Source of the DNA: PVC group bacterium
Lineage (GTDB): Bacteria; Auribacterota; Erginobacteria; Erginobacterales; Erginobacteraceae
Assembly: GCA_043804695.1 (NCBI GenBank)
Contig: JAZDIV010000152.1
Span: 1-32,562, forward strand
Length of the DNA: 32,562 nt
Direction of reading: 5' to 3'
Every line of letters starts with the position of its first letter. The first letter of the stretch is position 1. The notes beneath the pieces were generated by a model. It made no database searches. It saw only the letters and a program-made list of their open reading frames with translations, and had not been told where the DNA came from. Shown here piece by piece: positions 8,096 to 23,497 of this stretch. The position numbers were made by a program, and so were the translations under genes.

Positions 8096-8222
8096 GGCAT
8101 TCGAGAGCCGGGATTCATTCCTCGTTCGCCAGGCAACATGGAAACCACCGGCTCGGGCCGGACGCGCCCCCGACGTGCGTTATCCAAATACGGTGGATTT
8201 CATTGTTGTGCCATGGCATTGT

Positions 8223-8441
8223 TTACGCGTATACCAGTCGGCCCTTCGGTTGCGGAACGGGCCGACCAAGCTCCTTGGCCGTTTTAATCCACTCCTGAAT
8301 GATTTGCTCCGCGTTCGCGAGAGCCTCATGGTATGTCTTGCCGTCTGCCATGCAACCCGGGAGTTCCGGCACCTCGGCGACGAACGCGTCATCTTCCTCA
8401 CTCCAGAAAATAATGATCTCGTATCTTGAATCCATGATCAT
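8223..8441 (-). CDS. hicB: HicB-family antitoxin
   Basis: YEIIIFWSEEDDAFVAEVPELPGCMADGKTYHEALANA is the canonical short HicB signature. Confidence 0.92.
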   Translation of the reverse strand: MIMDSRYEIIIFWSEEDDAFVAEVPELPGCMADGKTYHEALANAEQIIQEWIKTAKELGRPVPQPKGRLVYA

Positions 8442-8692
8442 TCCCCCAATCTCAGATTGTATTGCAAAATTACGCCACGCACCTGCTTGACTTGGTACGC
8501 TTTTCCTTTGCCGTTTTTGGGATGCAGGTTCAGGATCTCTTCTACTCCGGTCATTGTGAAGATGTGGTGGTCTCCTCTGATGCGTTCATCAAACCCGATC
8601 TGCCTGAGAAGTGCACACAAACCGTCAAAGGGCACATTGGCGTCCGATCGGCGCATCAGAATATGCCGGTATAGTTTCTCGTGCTTTCCCAT
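8438..8692 (-). CDS. hicA: HicA-family toxin
   Basis: GFDERIRGDHHIF...ILNLHPKNGKGKAYQVKQV; overlaps the hicB start. Confidence 0.9.
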   Translation of the reverse strand: MGKHEKLYRHILMRRSDANVPFDGLCALLRQIGFDERIRGDHHIFTMTGVEEILNLHPKNGKGKAYQVKQVRGVILQYNLRLGE

Positions 8693-8850
8693 GGCGATAC
8701 GAAAGTAACTGTTGACCTTTATAGGCTATTTCATTCTCTGGCCCAACATTATATTATTCACCGCTCCTCATGATTATTTTTGCATATCGGAAAAATAATT
8801 ACAGCAAAAATACGATCAATACATCGATGCCATCCCTCCGTTCGCCGGAC

Positions 8851-8922
8851 GGCGAACGACAAAGCTCACTGGAAGGGATGGAGCGCAGCGGAATTGCCAA
8901 CCAGTAAAGCGCCTTGTTATAT
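8851..8922 (-). mobile_element. Integron attC recombination site
   Basis: Minus strand: R'' ATATAAC, 5-bp spacer, L'' GCTTTACT(GG), central loop, (CC)AGTGAGC L', 6-bp spacer, R' GTTCGCC; the L arms pair with one extrahelical base. Confidence 0.8.
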
Positions 8923-8974
8923 GCCTGCCTAATGCGCTATCCTTCTCGTGTATTTGAATAATCTTGCCATTTCT

Positions 8975-11900
8975 TCAAGTGGCATTTGCGGCTTTGGCCT
9001 CCTCCCGGATCTTCTCGTAGACCTCCTTGAGGAGGTGTTGGCTGACGGCCGCGCGGAACTGGTCCTCGTTCATGAACTTGGCCGTGATCTCCTCGTTCTG
9101 ATCCATTCGATCGATAAAGAGCCCCTCCAGGGCCTTGCGGAAGACATAGCCGAAGTTTTCCATCGTATTGGCGAGCGCGGCTTGACGAAGACTGCTGTCG
9201 GCTACGGCATCCTCTCGTATCGACTCGAAAAAGAGCTGATCGCCAGGCTTGAACTCCGTCCCAAATCGCTCGTTGAGAATGTCGATCAGTTTGGACAGCT
9301 CGATCTCATCACCTCGGGTGACACCGGTTCCCACTGACGTGGGCCCCGACACCTCATAGCGCGCGCCCGGTTCCATGACGATGGAACCCTCGCCGATCTT
9401 CTGCAATCGGTAAAACTTGAGCGCCACGTCATCGTCAAAGTTATAGATCGGACCCCGGTCGCCCCGGGGAAGTTTGGTAAGCAGAAACCGGATGTATGAG
9501 TACAGCTTCTCCAGGTCGGAGTCCTGGAAGGGAATCACCTGCGACATGAACGAATAGAGGTTTCTGAAAGCGACCAGTGTCTTGCGGAACTTCTCGCGGA
9601 CTTCTTCATCAAGATCATTGTATCTGCTTACCGCCGGATCGATGCAGGCGTTCATCCGGGCGTGGTCAGCGGGTGTTTGATTCCGTTTTGGTCTATAGAA
9701 GACCTTGCAGAATTCCTCGACCTCGGTCTGGTAGTAGACCTGATATCCGTCCAATTTGGCTTGAAGTTCATAAAGCTGTTTCGGCTCTGCCCGCTCGCCG
9801 ATGATCGTCTGCTCGTAGTAGGGCTGGAAGGCCTCTAATATCTCTTCGGGTTCATTGACGAAGTCGAGAACAAAGGTGTCTTCCTTGCCCTGATGGGTGC
9901 GGTTGAGCCTGGAGAGGGTTTGAACCGCCTGAAGTCCCGCCAGCCGCTTGTCCACGTACATGGTATGCAAAAGCGGCTGATCAAATCCGGTCTGGTATTT
10001 CTCCGCCACAAGAAGCACCTGGTACTCTTCCGTTCCATAGCGTTCGGGAAGCTCCTTCTCGCGGATGCCGTGGTTCATGCCGACTTCCGTGTATTCCACG
10101 CCGGGTGCGTCCGGATCGATCACCGTGCCGGAAAAAGCGACCAGCGTCTTGATCCCCGTGTACCCTTTCTTGGCGATGTACTTATCGAAAGACTGCTTGT
10201 ATCTGACCGCGTGGAGACGGCTGGAGGTGACCACCATCGCCTTGGCCTTTCCGCCGATCTTGTGCATGGTGAAGTGGCGGAAATGCTCGACCATGACCTC
10301 GGTCTTCTGGGCGATGTTGTGCGGGTGGAGACTCATGAAGCGGGCGAGCGCGCGGGCGGCTTTGCGCTTGTCCACCCGGGGATCGTCTTCGATGGACTTG
10401 ATCAGCCGATAGTAGGTCTTGTACGTGGTGTAATTTTGGAGAACGTCGAGGATGAAGCCCTCGTCAATGGCCTGCCGCATGGTGTAGAGATGGAAAGGCT
10501 GGGGCTTGCCGTCCCTGTCTGCCGTGCCGGCACAGGCAGGCGCTCCCGGAGTGCCGAAAACCTCCAGTGTCTTGTATTTGGGTGTCGCGGTGAAGGCGAA
10601 GAAACTGATGTTGGGCTGATGGCCGCGCTTGGCCATGGCCTTGAGGATTTCCTCTTCGTAGTCGGGCAGTCCTTCTTCCTCGGCTTTCGCCCGGGCCTCT
10701 TCCTTGATGGCGGCGCCGGCGAGCACGCCCTTCAGTTCGGTGGCCGTTTCGCCGCCCTGGGAACTGTGAGCCTCGTCAACCACCACCGCGTACCTGCGCA
10801 TGGGCAGATCGCTTATTTTCTCGGTAACGAAGGGGAACTTCTGGAGAGTCGTGATCACGATCGGCACGCCGGACCCGAGGGCTTCGGCCAACTGGGTCGA
10901 GTTGATATCGATTTTCCGGACCACGCCCTGCTTGTGCTCGAACTGGTAAATCGTGTTCTGGAGCTGCTGATCGAGTACCACCCGGTCCGTGACCACGATG
11001 ATCGAGTCGAAGATCTTCTCGTCATTGTCATTGTAAAGACTGGCGAGCCGATGGGCCAGCCAGGCGATGGAGTTGGACTTGCCGCTGCCGGCGGAATGTT
11101 GGACGAGGTAATTGGTTCCGGTTCCGCGTTCGCGAGCGTCGGCCACGAGTTTCCGCACGCAATCCAACTGGTGGTAGCGCGGAAAGATCATCGTCTCCCG
11201 CTTCACCTTCCTGCCGCCTGCCTGCGCCGTGCCTTGCGCGGCAGGCAGGCGGAACTGTTTCTCCTCGACTTGCAGATGGATGAACCTCGCCAGGATGTCG
11301 AGGAAGCTGTGCCGCTCCAGAACCTTTTCCCAAAGGTAAGCGGTCTTGTAGCCGTCGGGATTCTCCGGGTTGCCCGCCCCTGTCTGCGTGCCACGCACAG
11401 GCAGGCCGCCTCCGCGGCCCATGTTGAAGGGAAGAAAACAGGTGCCGCGGCCGGAAAGCCGTGTGGTCATATAGGCCTCGTCGGTGTCCACGGCGAAATG
11501 GATCAATGTACGCTTTTTGAACTGAAAGATCGGGTCCGCCGGGTCGCGGTCATTTTTGTATTGCGTGATCGCATGCCGCCAGGTCTGGGCGGTCATGGGG
11601 TTTTTGAGCTCCAGCGTGGATACGGGGATACCGTTCAGGGCCAGGGTCACATCGAGGGTATTGCCGCCTGCCTGTCGCGACGCGGCCGATAGTCGTCCCG
11701 CCGCGTATTCCCGCTTGAGCCATTGACGACCGAAACCGGTTTTCAGTTCGTCTTCCCGCTTGACGGCACTCTCGCGGGACTCGAATGCCTCCCAATGAAT
11801 GGGTTCCACAGGTAAGCGAGAAGCAGTCCATGTTACCTGCTTGGCGTGATGCTCACCAAGACGCCTTGGAAAGTTATCGGTTTGGCCAATGTAAAAGGAA

Positions 11901-12370
11901 TCATCTATACACTTCAAAACATAGATGCAGAACTCTCCTGCCTTTGGTCGCGGCGCAGGCAGGTGCTTGGCCGAGTAGCGGAGCTGGCGAATGATAGTGA
12001 GGCGATTGGCCGTGTAGAGCTTTTGGGTGTCCGGGTTCATTCCGCTCGCCGGTGCGAAGTAGGCCACGCGGAAGAGCTTGCCGAAGCATTTGAACCCATG
12101 CCGAAGGACGGTGAGGCATCCCTCGTGTTCGGAATTGAGCGCCCGGCAGAGGTCGTCCAGGAGTGTGGCCTCGGCCTTGTCCTTCTGGATGCCCGCAAGG
12201 TATTCCCATTCCCCGGGCTGGGTTGTCTGGATGAAAGAAATCACATCCCGCGGGAAGAGGCCGCGTTGCGGGTCGTAAGTGTCCCGGTCGCCCTTTTCGT
12301 AACCGCCTGCCGTGATCAGGTGGTGTTCGATGGCGGTCTCGAATGCGTGTTCGGTATGTTGGCCCGGCAT
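8975..12370 (-). CDS. hsdR: Type I restriction enzyme R subunit with in-frame insertions, including a GIY-YIG domain
   Basis: Nuclease motif LDVTLALNGIPVSTLELKN; Walker A QHSAGSGKS; VDEAHSSQ; FTATPK; QTGFDQP; QTLSRLNR. Start ATG 12370 (MPGQHTE) after GGAGG. Confidence 0.95.
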   Translation of the reverse strand: MPGQHTEHAFETAIEHHLITAGGYEKGDRDTYDPQRGLFPRDVISFIQTTQPGEWEYLAGIQKDKAEATLLDDLCRALNSEHEGCLTVLRHGFKCFGKLFRVAYFAPASGMNPDTQKLYTANRLTIIRQLRYSAKHLPAPRPKAGEFCIYVLKCIDDSFYIGQTDNFPRRLGEHHAKQVTWTASRLPVEPIHWEAFESRESAVKREDELKTGFGRQWLKREYAAGRLSAASRQAGGNTLDVTLALNGIPVSTLELKNPMTAQTWRHAITQYKNDRDPADPIFQFKKRTLIHFAVDTDEAYMTTRLSGRGTCFLPFNMGRGGGLPVRGTQTGAGNPENPDGYKTAYLWEKVLERHSFLDILARFIHLQVEEKQFRLPAAQGTAQAGGRKVKRETMIFPRYHQLDCVRKLVADARERGTGTNYLVQHSAGSGKSNSIAWLAHRLASLYNDNDEKIFDSIIVVTDRVVLDQQLQNTIYQFEHKQGVVRKIDINSTQLAEALGSGVPIVITTLQKFPFVTEKISDLPMRRYAVVVDEAHSSQGGETATELKGVLAGAAIKEEARAKAEEEGLPDYEEEILKAMAKRGHQPNISFFAFTATPKYKTLEVFGTPGAPACAGTADRDGKPQPFHLYTMRQAIDEGFILDVLQNYTTYKTYYRLIKSIEDDPRVDKRKAARALARFMSLHPHNIAQKTEVMVEHFRHFTMHKIGGKAKAMVVTSSRLHAVRYKQSFDKYIAKKGYTGIKTLVAFSGTVIDPDAPGVEYTEVGMNHGIREKELPERYGTEEYQVLLVAEKYQTGFDQPLLHTMYVDKRLAGLQAVQTLSRLNRTHQGKEDTFVLDFVNEPEEILEAFQPYYEQTIIGERAEPKQLYELQAKLDGYQVYYQTEVEEFCKVFYRPKRNQTPADHARMNACIDPAVSRYNDLDEEVREKFRKTLVAFRNLYSFMSQVIPFQDSDLEKLYSYIRFLLTKLPRGDRGPIYNFDDDVALKFYRLQKIGEGSIVMEPGARYEVSGPTSVGTGVTRGDEIELSKLIDILNERFGTEFKPGDQLFFESIREDAVADSSLRQAALANTMENFGYVFRKALEGLFIDRMDQNEEITAKFMNEDQFRAAVSQHLLKEVYEKIREEAKAANAT
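10514..10540. repeat. 27-bp in-frame palindromic element in hsdR (PACAGTADR)
   Basis: cctgtctg-ccgtgccggca-caggcagg. Confidence 0.9.
11217..11249. repeat. 33-bp in-frame palindromic element in hsdR (LPAAQGTAQAG)
   Basis: cctgcctg-cgccgtgccttgcgcgg-caggcagg. Confidence 0.9.
11379..11405. repeat. 27-bp in-frame palindromic element in hsdR (LPVRGTQTG)
   Basis: cctgtctg-cgtgccacgca-caggcagg. Confidence 0.9.
11667..11963 (-). mobile_element. 297-bp in-frame insertion in hsdR: GIY-YIG nuclease domain bracketed by two 27-bp palindromic elements
   Basis: Flanking units 11667-11693 (cctgcctg-N11-ccgatagt) and 11937-11963 (cctgcctt-N11-caggcagg). Core CIYVLKCIDDSFYIGQTDNFPRRLGEH...AVKREDELKTGFGRQWLK. 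Confidence 0.88.
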
Positions 12371-12461
12371 CAGGCATCCTCCGTTACAAGTCGTGTCGCC
12401 AGTTTGTCGCGAACTATGTCGCAATCCGTCGCGATTCTCTGTCGCGATATGTCGCGATAGT

Positions 12462-13556
12462 TCATAAGCCTTTACCTTTCAGTATATAAAGCGATTGCCT
12501 TGCCGCTCCCTTCCGCCCGACGAGACCCAGGTTTTCCATCTGCTGCAAATCCCGCTGGAGGGTTCGCCTGTTCATGCCAGGGCACAGGACCTCCATGTCC
12601 CGGATATGCATTTCGGCGTGGTCGAGAAGGAAACGCAGGGCCTTTGTCTGCCGCTCGTTCAACTTGTGTTGCCTGGCGATCAAGTCGGCCTTCATCGCCT
12701 TCTTGACGCATTCGGACACCTCGCCGAGCTGCGTGGCCAACCCATCGACGAAGTATTCGAGCCAGCCGGTCATGTCCATGCCGCGATCGCGCACGCCCTG
12801 GATCGCCGCATAGAACGCCGACCGGTCGCGGTCGTAATATTCGCTGATCGTGAACAGCCGCTTGAAATCGTACCCCGCCCGATACAGGCACAGCATCGAC
12901 AGCAGACGCGACGTCCGCCCGTTGCCGTCCAGGAACGGGTGGATGTGGACAAGCTGGAACTGTGCCACGCCGCTGACCAGGACCGGATGCACCCCTGCCT
13001 GCGCCGCGTCCCGCGCCGCGGCAGGCAGGTGGCCCGACCCGTTGAGCCAGGCCACCAGCTCCTTCATCAGCACCGGCACGTCATGGGCGGGCGGCGGGGT
13101 GTAGACCGTCTGGCCCGTGGCTGAGTTGACCACGTAGTTCTGCACCGTGCGGTATTGACCCGGGGCGCCCTTGCCGCCGCGCGCTCCCTCGACCAGCCGC
13201 TTGTGAATCTCGCGGACCAGTCCCTCGGTGATGGGTGCGCCGCTGTCGAGGTATTCAGAGACGAACTTGAACGCCCGGCGATAGTTCAGCAGCTCCCGCG
13301 CATCATCCGGGTCGGCCTCGGGCACCGGCTCGCCGGCCAGCAACCGCTCGGCCTGGTCCAGCGTCAGGTGCGTGCCCTCGATGTGCGTCGTGTGGTGGGC
13401 TTCGAGCACCAGCGCCCGCTCGCCCATCGCCCGCACCCAGTCTTCCGACAGCTTTGCCGCCTCCAGAAACCCCCGGGCGCGTTCGATCCGCGTCAACGCC
13501 GCCGTGATAACGTTGGTGATGGTGAACTTGGGCTGCAAGCCGCGCTTGGCCATCAT
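12462..13556 (-). CDS. Fic-family protein with C-terminal wHTH
   Basis: [12 protein letters not shown]ic motif; TTHIEG; C-terminal [15 protein letters not shown]. Confidence 0.93.
12994..13029. repeat. 36-bp in-frame palindromic element in fic ([12 protein letters not shown])
   Basis: cctgcctg-cgccgcgtcccgcgccgcgg-caggcagg. Confidence 0.9.
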
Positions 13557-14884
13557 GCCACCTCCCCGCGAACATCGATCTTGCCCGTCACCGCCGCAGA
13601 GATGAGGGCGGTGCGATATTCTCGCAGCGTTTCGATGGAATGATTGATCATCTCATCCAAGGCATCGATCCGCGCCGTCTCGCGGTCGAGGAATGCGGCG
13701 ATGGCTCGCTGCTCTTCTATGGAAGGCAGCGCAATGGGGATGTTCTCGATAACGTTCATGCCAATGTTCTGCTGGGTTCCGAAACTCCATCCGAGTTCAA
13801 TGGACTGGAAAAAATTCTTCGATTTCATGAAGAAAAATACAAACGGTGTAATGGCCTTCTTGGGGTCTGGTCTGATTGCAGCGAGCGGCGACCAGATGTT
13901 GAACTCATCATCGGTATCTACAAACGCCACGTTACCAGTGGTAGCTCCGGATTTGATCAAGTAGATGTCACCTTTAAGAGGCTTGTATTTCTTTGAGAAC
14001 CGAGCGTGATCTTCTGGCGAAATAAACCCTCGCATCTTTGCAAAATCAATCCTGTCATTCTTGATCGCTTCCGCAGAAATAAACGGGATACCCTCATCCA
14101 GTAGCTCGGGCGTTTCATGCGGGCCATCAGTTACTGGAACGATTGTAATCCTCTTTATGGCAATGACCTCCCAATGCTTCGGCACATCCCCCAGCCATTC
14201 GATGCCGGAGTCTTTCATCTTGGCATTGGGGTCGAGGCCTTTGGTGACGGCGTGGCTGATGAGAGCGGATCGCTTCTCCTGGAGGAGTTCTATCTGCCGC
14301 TGTTTCTTTTCGATCAGCCCATCAATCCGCGCCGTCTCGCGGTCCAGAAACGCTGCTATGGCACGTTGCTCATCGAGTGGAGGTGAAACCAAGTAGGTTG
14401 AGGTCAAGCAATCTCGGCTTAGTTCTGTGAATGTTGAGCCTTGCCCCAAAGATTGAAGTTTGGGACGTGCAGCGAAAAGCTGGTAGAAGAAGAAACGCCT
14501 GTCATCATCACCACGAAACACAAGGCTGCGACACCCCTGGTTCGTACACAAGCGGACACCCGCAATTACTAAATGCCCAATCGGTGCACGTGTAGACAGA
14601 ACAAGACTGCCCTCAGCAGCAAGAGTCACTCCACAACTTGCATAACCTTCCTGGGTAATCATCCGGCTCGTGACATCTAATGTTGATCCACGCAGATTGC
14701 CAAGATCATCTGGCGTTGCCCACGGAATGTCGCCATCCCAATATTCCGGATTACCACTTTTAGGCGTCGCGCCGTTGAGGGTTGTGAATGTTCGCTTCAG
14801 TGCCTTGATCTCCCACTGCTCGGGCACATCCCCCAGCCATTCCACGCACGATGGCCTATAATGCGGATATGCGCGGCGGCTCAT
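13553..14884 (-). CDS. hsdS: Type I restriction-modification specificity subunit
   Basis: Two TRDs; repeated conserved segments EWLGDVPxxW and [20 protein letters not shown]-terminal [14 protein letters not shown]. Confidence 0.95.
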
Positions 14885-16065
14885 GACTTGCCCCCTTTGG
14901 CAGGCCCTTTTTTCCTGCTCCTCGGTTTGGCGAGCTTCTTCCGGGCGTCCTCCGGGCGAACCGTCAAGTTTTTCTTGACGGTTGCCTTTGTGGTTGCCTC
15001 GCCTGCGTCATCGCCCCGATTCTCGATAGCCAATCGGGAACGCTCAATGGCCTCATGCAGTTTGCGTTTCAGAACATCCTTAGGAGGTAATACAGTCAAG
15101 TACTCGGCGACGTGGATGCCGGAACGGCCCAGTTCGAGCAGTTCAATCTGTTCGGCATTCTTGCCCGCGCAGAGGATAATGCCCAAGGGTGAATCTTCGC
15201 CCGGCTTGCGCTCGTGTCTGTCGAGCCAGCGCAGGTAAAGCTCCATCTGTCCCTTGTGATCGGGCCGGAACTTGTCGAGTTTGAGTTCCACAACCACCAG
15301 ACGCCTCAGATCGCGATGGAAAAAGAGCAGGTCCAGGTAAAAATCGTCATGATCCACGGTGATGCGTTTTTGCCGGGCGACAAAGGTGAATCCGATGCCC
15401 AACTCCATGATGAATGCTTCCAACTCGCGCAGGATGGCCGCTTCCAGATCTTTTTCCTGAAATGCTCCTTTGAGTCCGAGAAAGTCGAGCAAATAGGGAT
15501 CGCGGAACACCAGATCGGGAGTCATCCGATCTTCTTTCCGCAAGGCTTGCAGTTCCAGTTTCGCCAACTCGGCCGGTTTCTTGGAAAGGGCGGTGCGCTC
15601 GTACAGCATGGAACCGATCTTCTGCCGTAAGGTGCGGACGCTCCATCGTTCGACTCGACACATTTCTGCGTAGAAGTCGCGCTGTAAGGGGTCCTTGAGG
15701 GGGATCAGAGCGATGAAATGGGTCCAGCTCAATTCTCGTATCAGCGATACGACAATTCGCTCGTCGGGGAATACCTCGGCGAATTGAACCATGCGGCGGA
15801 GGTTTTTCTCTGCAAAGCTGCCACCATATTCGTGCGTCAATTCTTGTGACAGTGTGGCAAGAATCTGTTTCCCGTAATCGCCGCGCTTCCCCTTCAATAC
15901 GTCCTGATTGATCCTGCTGCCGATCCGCCAATGCAGCATGGTCAACCCGGCATTCACCGTGGCAGCCACGGCAGCCCGGGTTTCCTCGATCATTTGCCGG
16001 ATGTCGCCAAGCAATTGATTGGGGATTGCGGCCAAATCGGAAGGCTTTACCGGCTGTTCGTTCAT
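14881..16065 (-). CDS. YhcG/DUF1016 PD-(D/E)XK nuclease-domain protein
   Basis: Motifs LSWTHF, RDPYLLDFLGL, GFTFVARQKR, DLLFFHRDLRRLVVVELK, GQMELYL; start ATG 16065 (ATGA overlap). Confidence 0.92.
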   Translation of the reverse strand: MNEQPVKPSDLAAIPNQLLGDIRQMIEETRAAVAATVNAGLTMLHWRIGSRINQDVLKGKRGDYGKQILATLSQELTHEYGGSFAEKNLRRMVQFAEVFPDERIVVSLIRELSWTHFIALIPLKDPLQRDFYAEMCRVERWSVRTLRQKIGSMLYERTALSKKPAELAKLELQALRKEDRMTPDLVFRDPYLLDFLGLKGAFQEKDLEAAILRELEAFIMELGIGFTFVARQKRITVDHDDFYLDLLFFHRDLRRLVVVELKLDKFRPDHKGQMELYLRWLDRHERKPGEDSPLGIILCAGKNAEQIELLELGRSGIHVAEYLTVLPPKDVLKRKLHEAIERSRLAIENRGDDAGEATTKATVKKNLTVRPEDARKKLAKPRSRKKGPAKGGKS

Positions 16066-16274
16066 TCCGTGACCCCTGCTTGCCGCGCTTTGCTCGGCGC
16101 AGGCAAGTCCGCGAGCATGTCGGCGAGTTCCTGCTCGGTCTTCTTTAGATCGGTGCTGTATCTCAGGCGGCGAACCTCCCAATGAGTTGGTATATCACCC
16201 AGCCACTCGACTCCCGACGGCTTGTACGCCGGGTAGGTTGCTCGTTTGCTTGCTTTTGCGGCGGGGCGGCTCAC
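16062..16274 (-). pseudogene. Chimeric remnant: hsdS N-terminus fused to a duplicate of the hsdM C-terminus
   Basis: YPAYKPSGVEWLGDIPTHWEV (HsdS start) joined to TDLKKTEQELADMLADLPAPSKARQAGVTE (HsdM end); 16062-16154 matches 16828-16920. Confidence 0.85.
16075..16107. repeat. 33-bp palindromic element (duplicate of 16841-16873)
   Basis: cctgcttg-ccgcgctttgctcggcg-caggcaag. Confidence 0.85.
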
Positions 16275-16831
16275 GATTTGCCCCCTTTGCCGGACCTCTT
16301 TTCCCCGCCATTATTTCGGCTTTTGGGCGACTTCTTTTTCTTCGTCGGCTGTTTCTTGCCTGCCTGTGCGGCGCACGCAGACAGGCGCCGCGTCTCCAGC
16401 ATCTTTGCCGAAGTCCGCAGGTCTTCTATGTACCGCGCCTCGGCCTGGGCTTCCGCTTTCAGCCGCCGCCGTTCCGCGAAGGCGTCGTATTGTTCCTGCG
16501 CCCATTCGCAAGCATCGTCGCGTCTGACCGTGCCGGGGCCGGAAAGCACCGGCAATTCGGTGTCGCGCAGCCGCTGTACCGTGCGTGTCCCCTCCGGTCG
16601 AACTGACAAGAATTCCTTGTGAGTTGCCTCGGGAAGAAGTTCTTTTTCTTCGTATATGTTTTGGATGTGAAGACTTATGTTCTGCTGGGTCGTCTGGTAG
16701 AGCCCGGCCATGAGATTCTGCGTCAGCCAGACGGACTCATCCTGAAGCCGAACCTCAAGCCGGGTCTCGCCGGAATCGGATTGATAAATCAATATCCTGG
16801 TATCATCCGGTGCGGGTAAGTTCTTGCTCAT
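16271..16831 (-). pseudogene. RhuM-family protein with internal in-frame deletion
   Basis: RhuM N-terminus (ILIYQSDSGETRLEVRLQDESVWLTQ...NISLHIQNIYEEKEL) jumps at EGTRTVQR to a C-terminal-like segment; only 186 aa. Confidence 0.75.
16359..16385. repeat. 27-bp in-frame palindromic element in rhuM (LSACAAQAG)
   Basis: cctgcctg-tgcggcgcacg-cagacagg. Confidence 0.9.
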
Positions 16832-18966
16832 TCCGTCACCCCTGATTGCCGCGCTTTGCTCGGCGCAGGCAGGTCCGCGAGCATGTCGGCGATTTTCTGC
16901 TCGATCTTCTTGAGATCGGTCTCGATCTCCTCCAGCGGTCTTGGCGGGGTGTATTTGTAGAAGTAGCGGTTGAAGTTTACTTCGTAGCCGATTTTGGTCT
17001 TGGACTCGTCCACCCAGGCACTCGGAACGTGGGGTAAGACTTCCCTCTCCATATACTTGTCCACGTCTTCTTTGAGTGGAACGTTCTCGTAGTCGCGCAG
17101 TTCGGAATCGGGCTCTGGATTTCCATTAGCGTCGGTGCAGATCACGGCCGTTTCGTCTCGCTCAGCCAGGGCCAAAAGAATGGCCTTGAAGAGCGCGGCG
17201 GGAACAGTGATCCTGGTCTTTTTGAATGCGACCTTCATCTGTTTTGAGAACTCGTCGCGGTCTTTTACAATGTCAAGCGGCGTGAGGGTTTTCAGGGCGG
17301 CCAGGATTTCCTCTTGCTGCTGGCGGCCCGCTTCGATCTCAGATTGTGCGGCCCTGGTATCCTTTTGTTTCTTGCTGGCGGCCAGATTCGCAAAAGCCTT
17401 CGTCTCTTCAAGTCGCGCGATACGTTCGTTATCTACAGCAAAGTTGAGTCTGAGCGGCCGCTCGACCGTGATGCGGCGGTAGCCGAAATCCTCGTTATCA
17501 AAAACACGAATGTGCTCTGAATCCTTGAGATTCCCATAGAGCCTGGTGATCTCGTCGCGCTGATCGTCGCAAACTTCATTTCGCTTGTTGCCGAGGGATT
17601 TGCGCATCTTTTTGTAGAAGGTTGTTCCGTCCACCAGTTGAATCTTGCCCCTGCGCCCCGGTTCCTTGCGGTTGGTGATGATCCAGAGGTAGGTGTAGAT
17701 GCCCGTGTTATAGAAGAGTTGATCCGGCAGGGCGACAATGGCCTCCAGCCAATCGTTCTCGATGATCCAGCGGCGGATTTCACTCTCTCCCGACCCGGCC
17801 GCACCGGTAAAGAGCGGCGAGCCGTTGAAGACGATCCCAAGGCGGGTGCCTGCCTGCGCCGACCTGCCTGTCGCGTTTGCGACGCAGACAGGAGCTTCGG
17901 CAGGCAGGCCGCCTTCTTTTGGGCCCCTGCCTGCGCCGTGCTCGTCGCGGCAGGCAAGTTTCATCTTGCTGATCATGTGCTGGAGAAAAAGGAGCGAGCC
18001 GTCGTTGATTCGGGGCAGTCCCGCACCGAAACGTCCTCCGAAGCCCTGTTCCTCGTGTTCGCGCGTAATAAAGTCGGCTTCCGGTTTCCACTCCACACCG
18101 AAGGGCGGATTGGCCAGCATATAATCGAATTTGTGGCTGGGGAACCGGTCGTCGGTAAAACTGTCGCTAAAAGCAATATGATCAATGTCCTGGCCCTTGA
18201 TCATCATGTCCGAGCCGCAGATGGCGTAGGCTTGAGCGTTATAGTCCTGGCCGAAGACTTCCAGACGGGCGTCGGGGTTGAGTTCGCGCACGTAGTCCTC
18301 AGCCACGGACAACATGCCGCCCGTTCCGCAGGCCGGATCATAAAGGGTCCTTATGATTCCTTTGGTAGTAAGGATATCGCCGTCCGGCATAAAGAGGAGG
18401 TTCACCATCAGACGAATAACCTCGCGGGGAGTGAAGTGATCGCCGGCCTCCTCGTTCGATGCCTCGTTGAACCTCCGAATGAGTTCTTCGAAAATGTAGC
18501 CCATCTCAATGTTCGAGACGGCGTCCGGGTGCAAGTCGATATCACAGAACTTGGACACGACCAGATAGAGCCGGTCGGCCTTGTCCATTTTTGCGATGTG
18601 TTCCTCGAAGCCGAAGTTCTCGATGATCTCGCGGGCGCGTGTGGAGAAACCCTTGATGTAGTTGGTCAGATTGGCGGCGATGTTGTTCGGGTCGCCCTTG
18701 AGCTTTTCGAAGGTGAAGCGGCTGGTGTTATAGAAAGGCATACCCGTGACCCGGCAGAGAATGGGATCAATGTTCTTTACTTTGCCGCCCGAGAGCTTCC
18801 TCTGTTGTTCGAGGACCTTGTCCTTGGTGGGTTCCAGAACGCAGTCGAGCCGCCGCAGAACGGTCATGGGAAGCATGATGTCTTTGTACTGGTTTGGCCG
18901 GTAGGGTCCGCGAATAAGGTCGGCAACCGACCAAATGAAGCTAACTTTTTCGCCGAAGTTGTTCAT
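16828..18966 (-). CDS. hsdM: Type I restriction-modification N6-adenine methyltransferase with in-frame insertions
   Basis: AGDHFTPREV; motif I YDPACGTGG; motif IV LANPPFG; FNGSPLF; LFYNTGI. Confidence 0.96.
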   Translation of the reverse strand: MNNFGEKVSFIWSVADLIRGPYRPNQYKDIMLPMTVLRRLDCVLEPTKDKVLEQQRKLSGGKVKNIDPILCRVTGMPFYNTSRFTFEKLKGDPNNIAANLTNYIKGFSTRAREIIENFGFEEHIAKMDKADRLYLVVSKFCDIDLHPDAVSNIEMGYIFEELIRRFNEASNEEAGDHFTPREVIRLMVNLLFMPDGDILTTKGIIRTLYDPACGTGGMLSVAEDYVRELNPDARLEVFGQDYNAQAYAICGSDMMIKGQDIDHIAFSDSFTDDRFPSHKFDYMLANPPFGVEWKPEADFITREHEEQGFGGRFGAGLPRINDGSLLFLQHMISKMKLACRDEHGAGRGPKEGGLPAEAPVCVANATGRSAQAGTRLGIVFNGSPLFTGAAGSGESEIRRWIIENDWLEAIVALPDQLFYNTGIYTYLWIITNRKEPGRRGKIQLVDGTTFYKKMRKSLGNKRNEVCDDQRDEITRLYGNLKDSEHIRVFDNEDFGYRRITVERPLRLNFAVDNERIARLEETKAFANLAASKKQKDTRAAQSEIEAGRQQQEEILAALKTLTPLDIVKDRDEFSKQMKVAFKKTRITVPAALFKAILLALAERDETAVICTDANGNPEPDSELRDYENVPLKEDVDKYMEREVLPHVPSAWVDESKTKIGYEVNFNRYFYKYTPPRPLEEIETDLKKIEQKIADMLADLPAPSKARQSGVTE
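16841..16873. repeat. 33-bp in-frame palindromic element at the hsdM C-terminus (LPAPSKARQSG)
   Basis: cctgattg-ccgcgctttgctcggcg-caggcagg. Confidence 0.85.
17849..17908. repeat. Nested pair of 30-bp palindromic elements in hsdM
   Basis: Outer cctgcctg-cgccga^agcttcgg-caggcagg; inner (17863-17892) cctgcctg-tcgcgtttgcgacg-cagacagg. Confidence 0.9.
17926..17958. repeat. 33-bp in-frame palindromic element in hsdM (LACRDEHGAGR)
   Basis: cctgcctg-cgccgtgctcgtcgcgg-caggcaag. Confidence 0.88.
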
Positions 18967-19026
18967 GAATCCTCAATGCCAGATCATAATCAGCATCCGC
19001 GTTTGGTGTCCAAGCCGGTTCAGGGC

Positions 19027-19086
19027 ATATAACGAATAGTGTTTTATCCAATCGTGCGGAGCATGATGGAAAAAACACGGTTGAAC
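19027..19086 (-). mobile_element. Degenerate attC-like site upstream of hsdM
   Basis: Minus strand GTTCAAC (RYYYAAC), imperfect hairpin GTGTTTTTTCCATCATGC/GCACGATTGGATAAAACAC, then GTTATAT core. The left spacer is atypically short. Confidence 0.55.
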
Positions 19087-19225
19087 TGAGCCGCGCAAAC
19101 AAACGCAAAAAAAAGATTACCCGGCTATGGGTATTCTATTGGAAGTGGTGATGGCGGGCAAGAGCGAAGACGGCTTCCGGGCATTTGCTGGAAGGGGTGA
19201 AGAAGGCTCAGAATGAGCCCGAAAC

Positions 19226-19267
19226 GGATTAGACATTTTGTTTCGATCGAAACAAAATGTCTAATCC
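19226..19267. repeat. 42-bp perfect palindrome
   Basis: GGATTAGACATTTTGTTTCGA|TCGAAACAAAATGTCTAATCC. Confidence 0.9.
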
Positions 19268-19281
19268 AATATTCAGCTCTT

Positions 19282-19404
19282 TGTAACACTTTAGCACTTT
19301 GAAAGTGACGGCCATCTATCTCGTTACCACGCTCCGCGTGGGAACGCTTAATTTATCGTTCCCACGCGGAGCGTGGGAACGAGGGAAAGGGCTAAAGTGT
19401 TACA
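19282..19404. mobile_element. MITE-like element with 14-bp TIRs containing an inverted REP doublet
   Basis: TIRs TGTAACACTTTAGC (19282-19295) / GCTAAAGTGTTACA (19391-19404); internal inverted 27-mers CTCGTTMCCACGCTCCGCGTGGGAACG at 19320-19346 and 19357-19383. Confidence 0.6.
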
Positions 19405-23268: not shown

Positions 23269-23497
23269 GGCGCTCCCTTTCCGGATACCCCGGCTGCCTT
23301 GGTGGTCGACGTAAAAAGACCTCATTTGTGTATAATGATTGCGGCGAAAAAGCAATCACAATTATCCGCCAAAAGGCCGGCAGCCGGAGAAACGGCGCCC
23401 CCGGCCCTTCCCCGGAGAACGGAAAATTTTTTGTTGCATTTTATCGAATTAGGCATATAACAAGGCCTTAAACGTAGAATCAGTTTCTCGAAATGTC

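Follow-up and report, generated by a model that had tools for sequence, protein, structure and literature searches.

A six-gene type I restriction-modification locus as a candidate integron cassette of exceptional size

Gene content and limits of the locus

The window analysed here, i.e., the whole stretch of 32,562 nucleotides, corresponds to the complete 32.6-kb contig C152 (JAZDIV010000152.1) of a PVC group bacterium of the family Erginobacteraceae. The source genome (G000, assembly GCA_043804695.1) amounts to 2.97 Mb in 155 contigs and is 88% complete. HsdM, HsdS and HsdR are encoded together on the minus strand of this contig, within a set of six open reading frames (ORFs), and constitute a type I restriction-modification (RM) system according to Pfam and to PADLOC (MTase_I, Specificity_I and REase_I). 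An earlier note on this DNA had proposed that the whole operon is one integron gene cassette. Our analysis indicates that the locus is probably a genuine integron-type cassette of exceptional size, which is now immobile. Its genes, and the pair located directly downstream, are as follows:

16828..18966, minus strand: hsdM (712 aa); Pfam HsdM_N and N6_Mtase, PADLOC MTase_I at 971 bits
16271..16831, minus strand: ORF186 (186 aa), a PDC-S05-like fragment (PADLOC PDC-S05, residues 1-87 only)
14881..16182, minus strand: gene of a DUF1016/YhcG PD-(D/E)xK nuclease (PDC-S02) within the RM operon; Pfam, PADLOC 430 bits
13553..14884, minus strand: hsdS; Pfam Methylase_S, PADLOC Specificity_I
12462..13556, minus strand: Fic/DOC gene (SoFic-like) within the operon; Pfam Fic and Fic_N, PADLOC SoFic at 217 bits
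8975..12424, minus strand: hsdR (1149 aa); Pfam, PADLOC REase_I
nt 11962-11666, minus strand: 99-aa GIY-YIG domain of hsdR; Pfam
8223..8692, minus strand: toxin-antitoxin pair 3' of the proposed cassette, made of a hicA-like gene (8692-8438) and hicB (8435-8223)

As the earlier note had it, the six ORFs of the locus all lie on the minus strand and the unit 19032->8857 measures 10,176 bp. ORF186 gave no match in Pfam and NCBIfam searches. It lies in a 766-nt segment enclosed by 93-nt direct repeats (16062-16154 and 16828-16920, 92% identical); this segment is missing from the homologous operons and also holds a copy of the junction between the end of the DUF1016 gene and the start of hsdS. In the downstream pair, hicB matches HicB_lk_antitox above the cut-off (40.6 bits) and the hicA-like gene matches HicA_toxin below it (E 4.7e-4). 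The hicAB segment lies between two occurrences of the motif GGCGAAC (minus strand). The window gave no match in Rfam or tRNA scans.

The two ends of the unit carry GTTATATGCC (plus strand, 8916-8925) and GGCATATAAC (19024-19033), which are exact reverse complements of each other, at the positions previously given. Read as parts of an integron cassette, these ends comprise:

19033..19206, minus strand: repeat element, a stretch of about 120 nt followed by a hairpin with its stem at 19078->19035, ending ...CACTATTC-G at 19033
19024..19032, minus strand: 5' start of the proposed cassette, TTATATGCC, i.e., the part of R' travelling with it
8850..8925, minus strand: attC-like site, matched by the models R1 and R2
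8925-8916, minus strand: R'' box GGCATATAAC, followed by a spacer (8915-8911)
8910-8901, minus strand: L'' box GCTTTACTGG, followed by 28 unpaired nt (8900-8873)
8872-8864, minus strand: L' box CCAGTGAGC, followed by a spacer (8863-8858) and by the G of R' at 8857

The proposed joints fall at G|TT 19033/19032 and at G|TT 8857/8856, the TTCGCC from 8856 onward being part of the next unit. Both core motifs of the crossover are present, namely TATAAC (8921->8916, R'' ending in AAC) and GTT (8857->8855, R'). Together with the preceding G, TTATATGCC is the reverse complement of R'' (8925->8916) over 10 of 10 positions. The attC-like site begins about 50 nt past the hsdR stop codon, and the genes share the minus strand with the model match, i.e., they are co-oriented with the attC top strand. 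The 16-mer AGGCATATAACAAGGC, which spans R'' and its spacer (minus strand, 8912-8927), recurs on the plus strand at 23451-23466, in a promoter-like stretch (TTGCAT-N16-TATAAC) conserved with changes in the same-genus genome G001. This recurrence could be a chance extension, or it could reflect R'' doubling as a -10 box.

The attC-like site, the upstream hairpin and the role of chance

The attC-like site was evaluated with two covariance models of the clade, R1 being built from 8 attC sites of G001 and R2 from 32 attC sites of six genomes. The 32-site alignment is 84.9% paired, with 16 of its 23 pairs changed on both sides, and none of 500 shuffles reached these values. Both models placed their top match of the window at 8923->8850 on the minus strand, R1 with 14.7 bits (E 0.014, runner-up at 10.5 bits) and R2 with 14.6 bits (E 0.05, runner-up at 8.7 bits), the E-values of such models being rough. 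A filters-off control search of 89,935 bases reached a maximum of 9.0 bits. A default-filter control, giving one match (14.9 bits) in 80 genome loci and none in 80 metagenome loci, was discarded because at that search size the filters also remove the window's own match. The covariance-model check called for in the earlier note gave a weak match at the 3' site. The motifs of the clade are retained (AAC-N5-CGCT... and ...AGCT-N5/6-GTT, here CGTT), and the L box GCTT[T]ACTGG forms 9 of 9 standard pairs with CCAGTGAGC, one of them being G-U. The single unpaired T lies on the L'' arm, at the unpaired position of the family. Besides, the invariant family pairs are kept and two pairs are changed on both sides, in a compensatory manner. 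The alternative of an attC on the plus strand, ending a hicBA cassette from 8124, is less likely: neither model has its match here on the plus strand, where the unpaired base would fall on the wrong arm.

Several properties of this site weigh against the cassette reading. The 14 genuine attC sites of the source genome score 29-81 bits, compared with 14.6-14.7 bits here, a score in the twilight zone of the model; the genome-scale E is about 4, and six other model matches in that genome score 14.6-20.3 bits. The contiguous stretch 8925->8851 folds at -5.7 kcal/mol (z +1.15), which 178 of 200 shuffles at least equalled, and the contiguous bottom strand at -6.8 kcal/mol (z +0.6). In a cassette, R'' pairs with the cassette start and not with the adjacent R', which would explain the poor contiguous fold. 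As the junction of a circle, the bottom strand folds at -12.8 kcal/mol (z -2.7). Even in this form, the site is weaker than seven genuine G001 sites (-19.8 to -30.4 kcal/mol), because its 28 central nt remain unpaired, and it lacks the stable bottom strand with a paired central stem. The earlier description of a well-formed attC at 8851-8922 thus agrees with the top R1 and R2 match in place and strand, but overstates the form of the site. The most stable fold of the region is another one, in which CCATCCCTTCC (8881->8871) pairs with GGAGGGATGG (8839->8830) around a mini-hairpin GTTCGCCG-TC-CGGCGAAC located directly past the cassette joint (8840-8857); this fold does not rise above shuffles (z -1.2; 25/200) and crosses the attC boundary.

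Within integron arrays, the next cassette already begins with the TT... after the G of an attC. Consequently, R'' should pair with the start of its own cassette, not with the adjacent R'. This is illustrated by the G001 array: in 13 of 18 cassettes, the preceding R', i.e., the cassette start, shares a prefix of 7-10 nt with the reverse complement of R''. Four of the five others are copies of one mini-cassette of 217-218 bp (9/10 identities), its first copy of 217 bp among them, and the last one has a prefix of 1. With the contiguous R', the match extends over at most 5 nt in 17 of the 18. The R'' of the window behaves likewise, matching the start at 19033 over 10 of 10 positions and the contiguous GTTCGCC over 3. 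The rule is looser in the C106 array of the source genome itself (prefixes 3, 4, 8 and 5), which lessens the weight of this likeness. In the G001 array, 16 of 18 intervals are of about 0.2-1 kb and the others of 2.2 and 6.4 kb, the longest being a 6,437-bp interval between consecutive attC sites. In the same array (G001:C7:233000-252999, locus L030, 15429-19796), 5 of 19 attC sites have GAT for GTT in R' and 5 have ATC for AAC in R''; these changes are matched within the 217-218-bp mini-cassette present four times and amount to a covarying non-canonical crossover triplet.

At the opposite end, the joint lies at the foot of the hairpin repeat element. The hairpin is stable as DNA on both strands, with -9.2 kcal/mol on the minus strand (z -3.4; 2 of 200 shuffles as good) and -11.6 kcal/mol on the plus strand (z -3.7; 1 of 200). 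Neither R1 nor R2 found an attC match in it (19086->19033), which speaks against the cassette proposal at this end. Of the attC-like hairpin invoked earlier, the hairpin is thereby retained and the attC identity is not. Four copies of the element were found, the window's own and those at G000:C18:1036-1207 (85%), G000:C81:1370-1418 and G003:C417:111-246. Three of them, in the window, C18 and G003, are alike as far as ...CACTATyC-GTTA and part immediately after it, and this loss of homology at CGTTA coincides with the predicted G|TT crossover at 19033. The element, if it is a module, may itself give a homology break at its end. Two of the three other copies precede BrnT toxin-antitoxin genes. 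Removal of the cassette from the window would place the element directly before hicAB, which is probably the unit that the element originally preceded. For this reason, a single insertion at G|TT is preferred here to a decayed array. A complement of R'' was also sought downstream of the three other hairpin copies, with no match on contigs that end 1.0-1.5 kb past the element.

Chance has to be considered at this point. The island could have come by another route, for instance by transformation and subsequent illegitimate or homologous recombination. Both the attC-like stretch and the 10-nt match would then be accidents of AT-rich promoter/terminator DNA. In a naive inverted-repeat test, an inverted exact match of at least 10 nt, as between the two intergenic regions, turned up in 294 of 2000 dinucleotide shuffles and for 763 of 3000 randomly paired genome segments, so that the 10-mer match looks like chance. 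Coincidence is likewise favoured by the genome-scale E and the contiguous fold given above, by the second occurrence of GGCATATAAC at 23452, in the promoter-like stretch conserved in G001, and by the metagenomic locus L150 described below, which points to a leader native to the operon. A conditioned test was run on 10-mers ending in AAC (n=29,594), with the position of R'' fixed independently by the attC model. The reverse complement then occurred within a stretch of about 630 nt located about 10 kb upstream in 39 cases (0.0013), and anywhere 0.3-15 kb upstream in 715 cases (0.024). Once R'' is fixed by the attC model, the 10-mer match exceeds chance. Moreover, coincidence would need three largely independent accidents on the same two nucleotide positions: the top model match at the place that the earlier note had already named (E 0.014-0.05), the complement of R'' at the start (0.0013-0.024), and a repeat breakpoint within 3 nt of the predicted joint in a 558-nt spacer. 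Ten matches with the start and three with the neighbour are also the signature of genuine cassettes. A chance origin of these ends is hence unlikely.

The inverted 10-mers at both ends (8916-8925 and 19024-19033), one of which coincides with a homology breakpoint, could also be taken for the 10-bp terminal inverted repeats of a mobile element unrelated to integrons. This is hardly credible, as Pfam and PADLOC detected no transposase or recombinase among the six ORFs, the flanks (GCCTT vs GAATA) form no target-site duplication, and the family-specific attC motifs just outside the repeats would be left unexplained.

A further account retains the RM locus as a cassette, arriving within an array. 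The locus would be the remnant of a cassette array without an integrase (CALIN), with the hairpin as the divergent attC of a stub, the RM operon as the second cassette and hicAB as the third one, with a truncated attC. Indeed, the hairpin element ends with a spacer and GTTA (TATTC-GTTA), like the 3' ends of clade attC sites, carries an R''-like GTTCAAC 60 nt upstream, and is preceded by about 120 nt conserved among its copies, as expected of a cassette tail. Chromosomal integrons typically contain toxin-antitoxin cassettes. The hicAB unit starts with GTTCGCC (8857->8851), of which a 7-nt complement, GGCGAAC, lies past hicB (8130->8124), and a weak R1 match (8212->8130; 9.6 bits, E 1.2) lies directly past hicB. 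On the other hand, the hairpin is matched by neither R1 nor R2, and its unpaired base lies on the 3' arm of the top strand, the reverse of the arrangement in the clade family. As for 8212->8130, it is not reported by R2, its R'' mismatches the start of the unit, and past GGCGAAC only about 25 nt precede DNA common to G001. We rejected hicAB as a second full cassette, the evidence (R1 at 9.6 bits, no R2 match) being too weak. A CALIN consists of two or more attC sites close together on one strand, with a usual clustering distance of 4 kb; the window holds a single site with E below 1. An array remnant is consequently a rather unlikely origin.

A lone RM cassette joined beside the hairpin is thus the reading retained. 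The central claim of the earlier note, that the locus is a cassette, is supported because a match to the clade attC model, the complementarity of R'' to the cassette start and a junction at a repeat breakpoint come together. The accompanying statements on the form of the attC, on the hairpin and on the palindromes (see below) were not supported.

Relatives, integrase genes and a proposed order of events

The locus was then compared with relatives and homologues. The feature missing at the syntenic site of G001 is the following:

8099..19220: whole 11.1-kb island

Contig C19 of G001 is syntenic on both sides, the stop codon of an HlyD-family gene being followed by about 93 bp and then by a 42-nt palindrome (window 19226-19267). 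The absence of the island as such speaks for the cassette. The empty-site allele that the earlier note had suggested looking for was, however, found in this broad sense only, and the details count against the cassette: the hairpin element and hicAB are missing from G001 as well, so that the boundaries 19032 and 8857 are not visible at its empty site, and no circle and no precise empty site were found, nor any second copy of the cassette in 40 relatives or 160 homologous RM loci. The perfect 42-nt palindrome at the island edge is kept at the empty site of G001, and this repeat is also present on contigs C46, C85 and C43 of the source genome. Next to it, at 19283-19404, lies an element of about 122 nt resembling a miniature inverted-repeat transposable element, with 14-nt inverted ends TGTAACACTTTAGC and two internal hairpins. 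About 18 other contigs of the source genome hold full or partial matches to it, and it is missing from the syntenic spacer of G001.

The RM operon is foreign. DNA homologues that are 65-87% identical, with the same gene order, were found in metagenome-assembled genomes (MAGs) labelled Firmicutes, Zixibacteria, Spirochaetales, Desulfobacterales and others, as well as on many metagenome contigs. These homologues bring further points against a cassette. The attC of the window was found in none of the 160 homologous loci, whose 3' homology ends at 8945-8965, short of R'' in every case. Homology at the 5' side ends at the start codon, except in L150, a metagenomic RM operon whose leader is about 80% identical to the 66-nt leader of the window, up to about 19040, and which reads TTATACGCT where the window reads TTATATGCC. 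The cassette start may hence be a sequence native to the operon, or L150 may descend from the cassette form. The earlier note had tied its idea both to the attC model and to the boundaries of homologous RM loci; the boundaries proved unrelated in the 160 loci, while the model does match. Two homologues were set aside as boundary comparisons, namely an hsdM homologue in G003:C16, with an unrelated upstream flank, and L045 from a Desulfobacterales MAG, the closest RM relative, whose operon is degraded and whose boundaries are unusable.

These homologies also bear on whether a short pre-existing cassette was invaded by the RM operon, which would then never have moved as a cassette. Mini-cassettes of 217-218 bp exist in the G001 array, and RM homology covers nearly the whole unit (18993/19040 to 8945), about 20 nt plus the attC being specific to the cassette. 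Against an invasion, the 5' end is homologous to the L150 leader up to the joint, with no old cassette sequence there, and a second insertion has left no sign in the form of a remnant ORF or a duplication. Such a history is very unlikely.

Integron integrases are present in the order. TIGR02249 was matched above its cut-off in 7 of 13 relatives of the same order, which have an intact intI, including G001 with two full copies. In G001:C7, intI has attC sites of textbook form next to it, which number at least 19 and fall into three length classes. On the window's contig, no integron-integrase match was obtained, in agreement with the absence of intI already noticed. The search for intI elsewhere in the genome, suggested at the time, gave a mixed outcome. 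None of 7 matches in the source genome passed the TIGR02249 cut-off (best 99.6 bits vs 265) in an assembly that is 88% complete, a result that does not favour a cassette. A remnant was found at G000:C32, about 240-1139, where an IntI-like protein matches the first 110 and the last 68 positions of the family with the middle missing, its C-terminus being 56% identical to the IntI of G001. Judged on its sequence, this gene is an internally deleted intI which has lost its central third. Genuine attC sites are present in the source genome, many of them at contig ends. This is illustrated by a five-site array within 2.2 kb at the end of contig C106 (G000:C106:62693-64844). Integrases in relatives and attC arrays in this genome are consistent with the cassette reading. 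Nothing in this genome would appear able to move cassettes now, unless a copy of intI lies in the unassembled 12%.

From these observations, an order of events can be proposed. The type I RM operon, from hsdM to hsdR, would have been one integron-type cassette of 10,176 bp, and in the excised circle its two ends would form a 10-bp R box. Through its attC, the circular cassette would have been inserted by an IntI-type integrase of the clade at a G|TT which marks the foot of the hairpin repeat. The target hairpin element would then have stood before hicAB, and the event would have been an insertion of the 'attG' kind at a secondary site outside the main array. Subsequently, the attC would have decayed at its centre and the intI of the genome would have lost its middle. 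The cassette would now be fixed, as an ordinary chromosomal defence locus. We infer in particular the mobilisation of the RM unit by IntI and the use of a secondary site that is not an attC. That integron recombination in this clade moved a 10-kb six-gene type I RM island outside any array, to a G|TT beside a chromosomal hairpin, and would thus extend beyond small cassettes, is put forward as a tentative possibility.

The earlier note had further suggested that mobilisation by an integron would explain why palindromic elements are confined to the locus. These G+C-rich palindromes, CCTGCCTGCGCC...GGCGCAGGCAGG, are of 27-33 nt, with one of 60 nt, and lie in frame in hsdR and hsdM:

10514-10540, 11219-11251 and 11396-11422: palindromes of hsdR (9, 11 and 9 aa)
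17958-17926, 17910-17851 and 16869-16837: palindromes of hsdM (11, 20 and 11 aa)

Four homologues are without any of them. The 99-aa GIY-YIG domain (11666-11962) is also in frame, its ends being the same palindrome halves, and no other copy of this segment was found in the genome. In L045, two of the palindromes are present and a solo palindrome occupies the GIY-YIG site of the window. Since palindromes are shared with this homologue, they were inherited with the operon. Integron recombination does not account for such in-frame insertions. The palindromes and the GIY-YIG segment look like a small mobile element inside coding sequence, leaving the frame unbroken.

Comparison with known integron and defence systems

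The proposed cassette can be set against the integron cassettes of G001:C7 and G000:C106. They have in common the G|TT joints, the R''-N5-L''...L'-N5/6-R' layout with CGCT/AGCT motifs, the unpaired base of the L'' arm, the complementarity of R'' to its own start and the co-orientation of the genes with the attC top strand. In contrast, the window unit extends over 10,176 bp with six ORFs, the centre of its attC is unpaired, its score is 14.6 bits compared with 29-81 bits, and it lies outside an array and not beside an integrase. According to Cury et al. 2016 and to IntegronFinder 2, CALIN and SALIN are reportedly attC sites without an integron integrase. As in these, an attC-type site lies here far from any intact integrase, whereas only one site is supported by the models and its partner joint is a non-canonical hairpin located 10 kb away, beyond the usual 4 kb. 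Cassette insertion at non-classical genomic 'attG' sites has reportedly been observed by Loot et al. 2024. The event proposed here would be alike, with an attC recombining with a G|TT outside attI and attC sites and leaving one attC and a hybrid R'. It would differ by its target, located at the foot of a repeated hairpin that might itself be a relative of attC. The term attG is used in the available part of PMC12901181.

A defence system in cassette format is also what the anti-phage defence cassettes of sedentary and mobile integrons represent. As presented in PMC12409362 and 10.1101/2024.07.02.601719, those reported by Darracq, Littner et al. and Kieffer et al. 2025 are chiefly streamlined one- or two-gene systems and reduced type II/IV restriction genes, whereas here a full three-subunit type I system comes with three embedded candidate defence genes. 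Two published statements count against our proposal. According to section 16 of PMC12409362, which summarises Darracq, Littner et al., integrons carry no defence systems with more than two genes. In the accessible part of a 2026 preprint, a cassette whose attC sites were separated by 4 kb could not be recovered, and recovery falls with size (10.64898/2026.03.17.712381). In the literature searched, no type I RM system is described as an integron cassette. A cassette made of a type I RM operon and its three embedded defence genes would depart from both the size limit and the two-gene limit. If true, integrons could give rise to defence islands of ordinary appearance, with a worn attC as the sole remaining scar, and some 'orphan' defence islands would be former cassettes. 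This would also bear on the birth of cassettes, the attC lying about 50 nt past the last stop codon of an operon that exists attC-free in many phyla.

Finally, embedded defence genes in a type I RM locus are known from the type I-embedded TgvAB of VPI-2 in Vibrio cholerae, as presented in the available text of PMC12409362. Similarly, PDC-S02/DUF1016, SoFic and the PDC-S05 fragment are nested between the hsd genes of the window. As far as that text describes them, the TgvAB-type loci lie in integrase- or tRNA-linked islands, whereas the window locus lies between integron-type joints.

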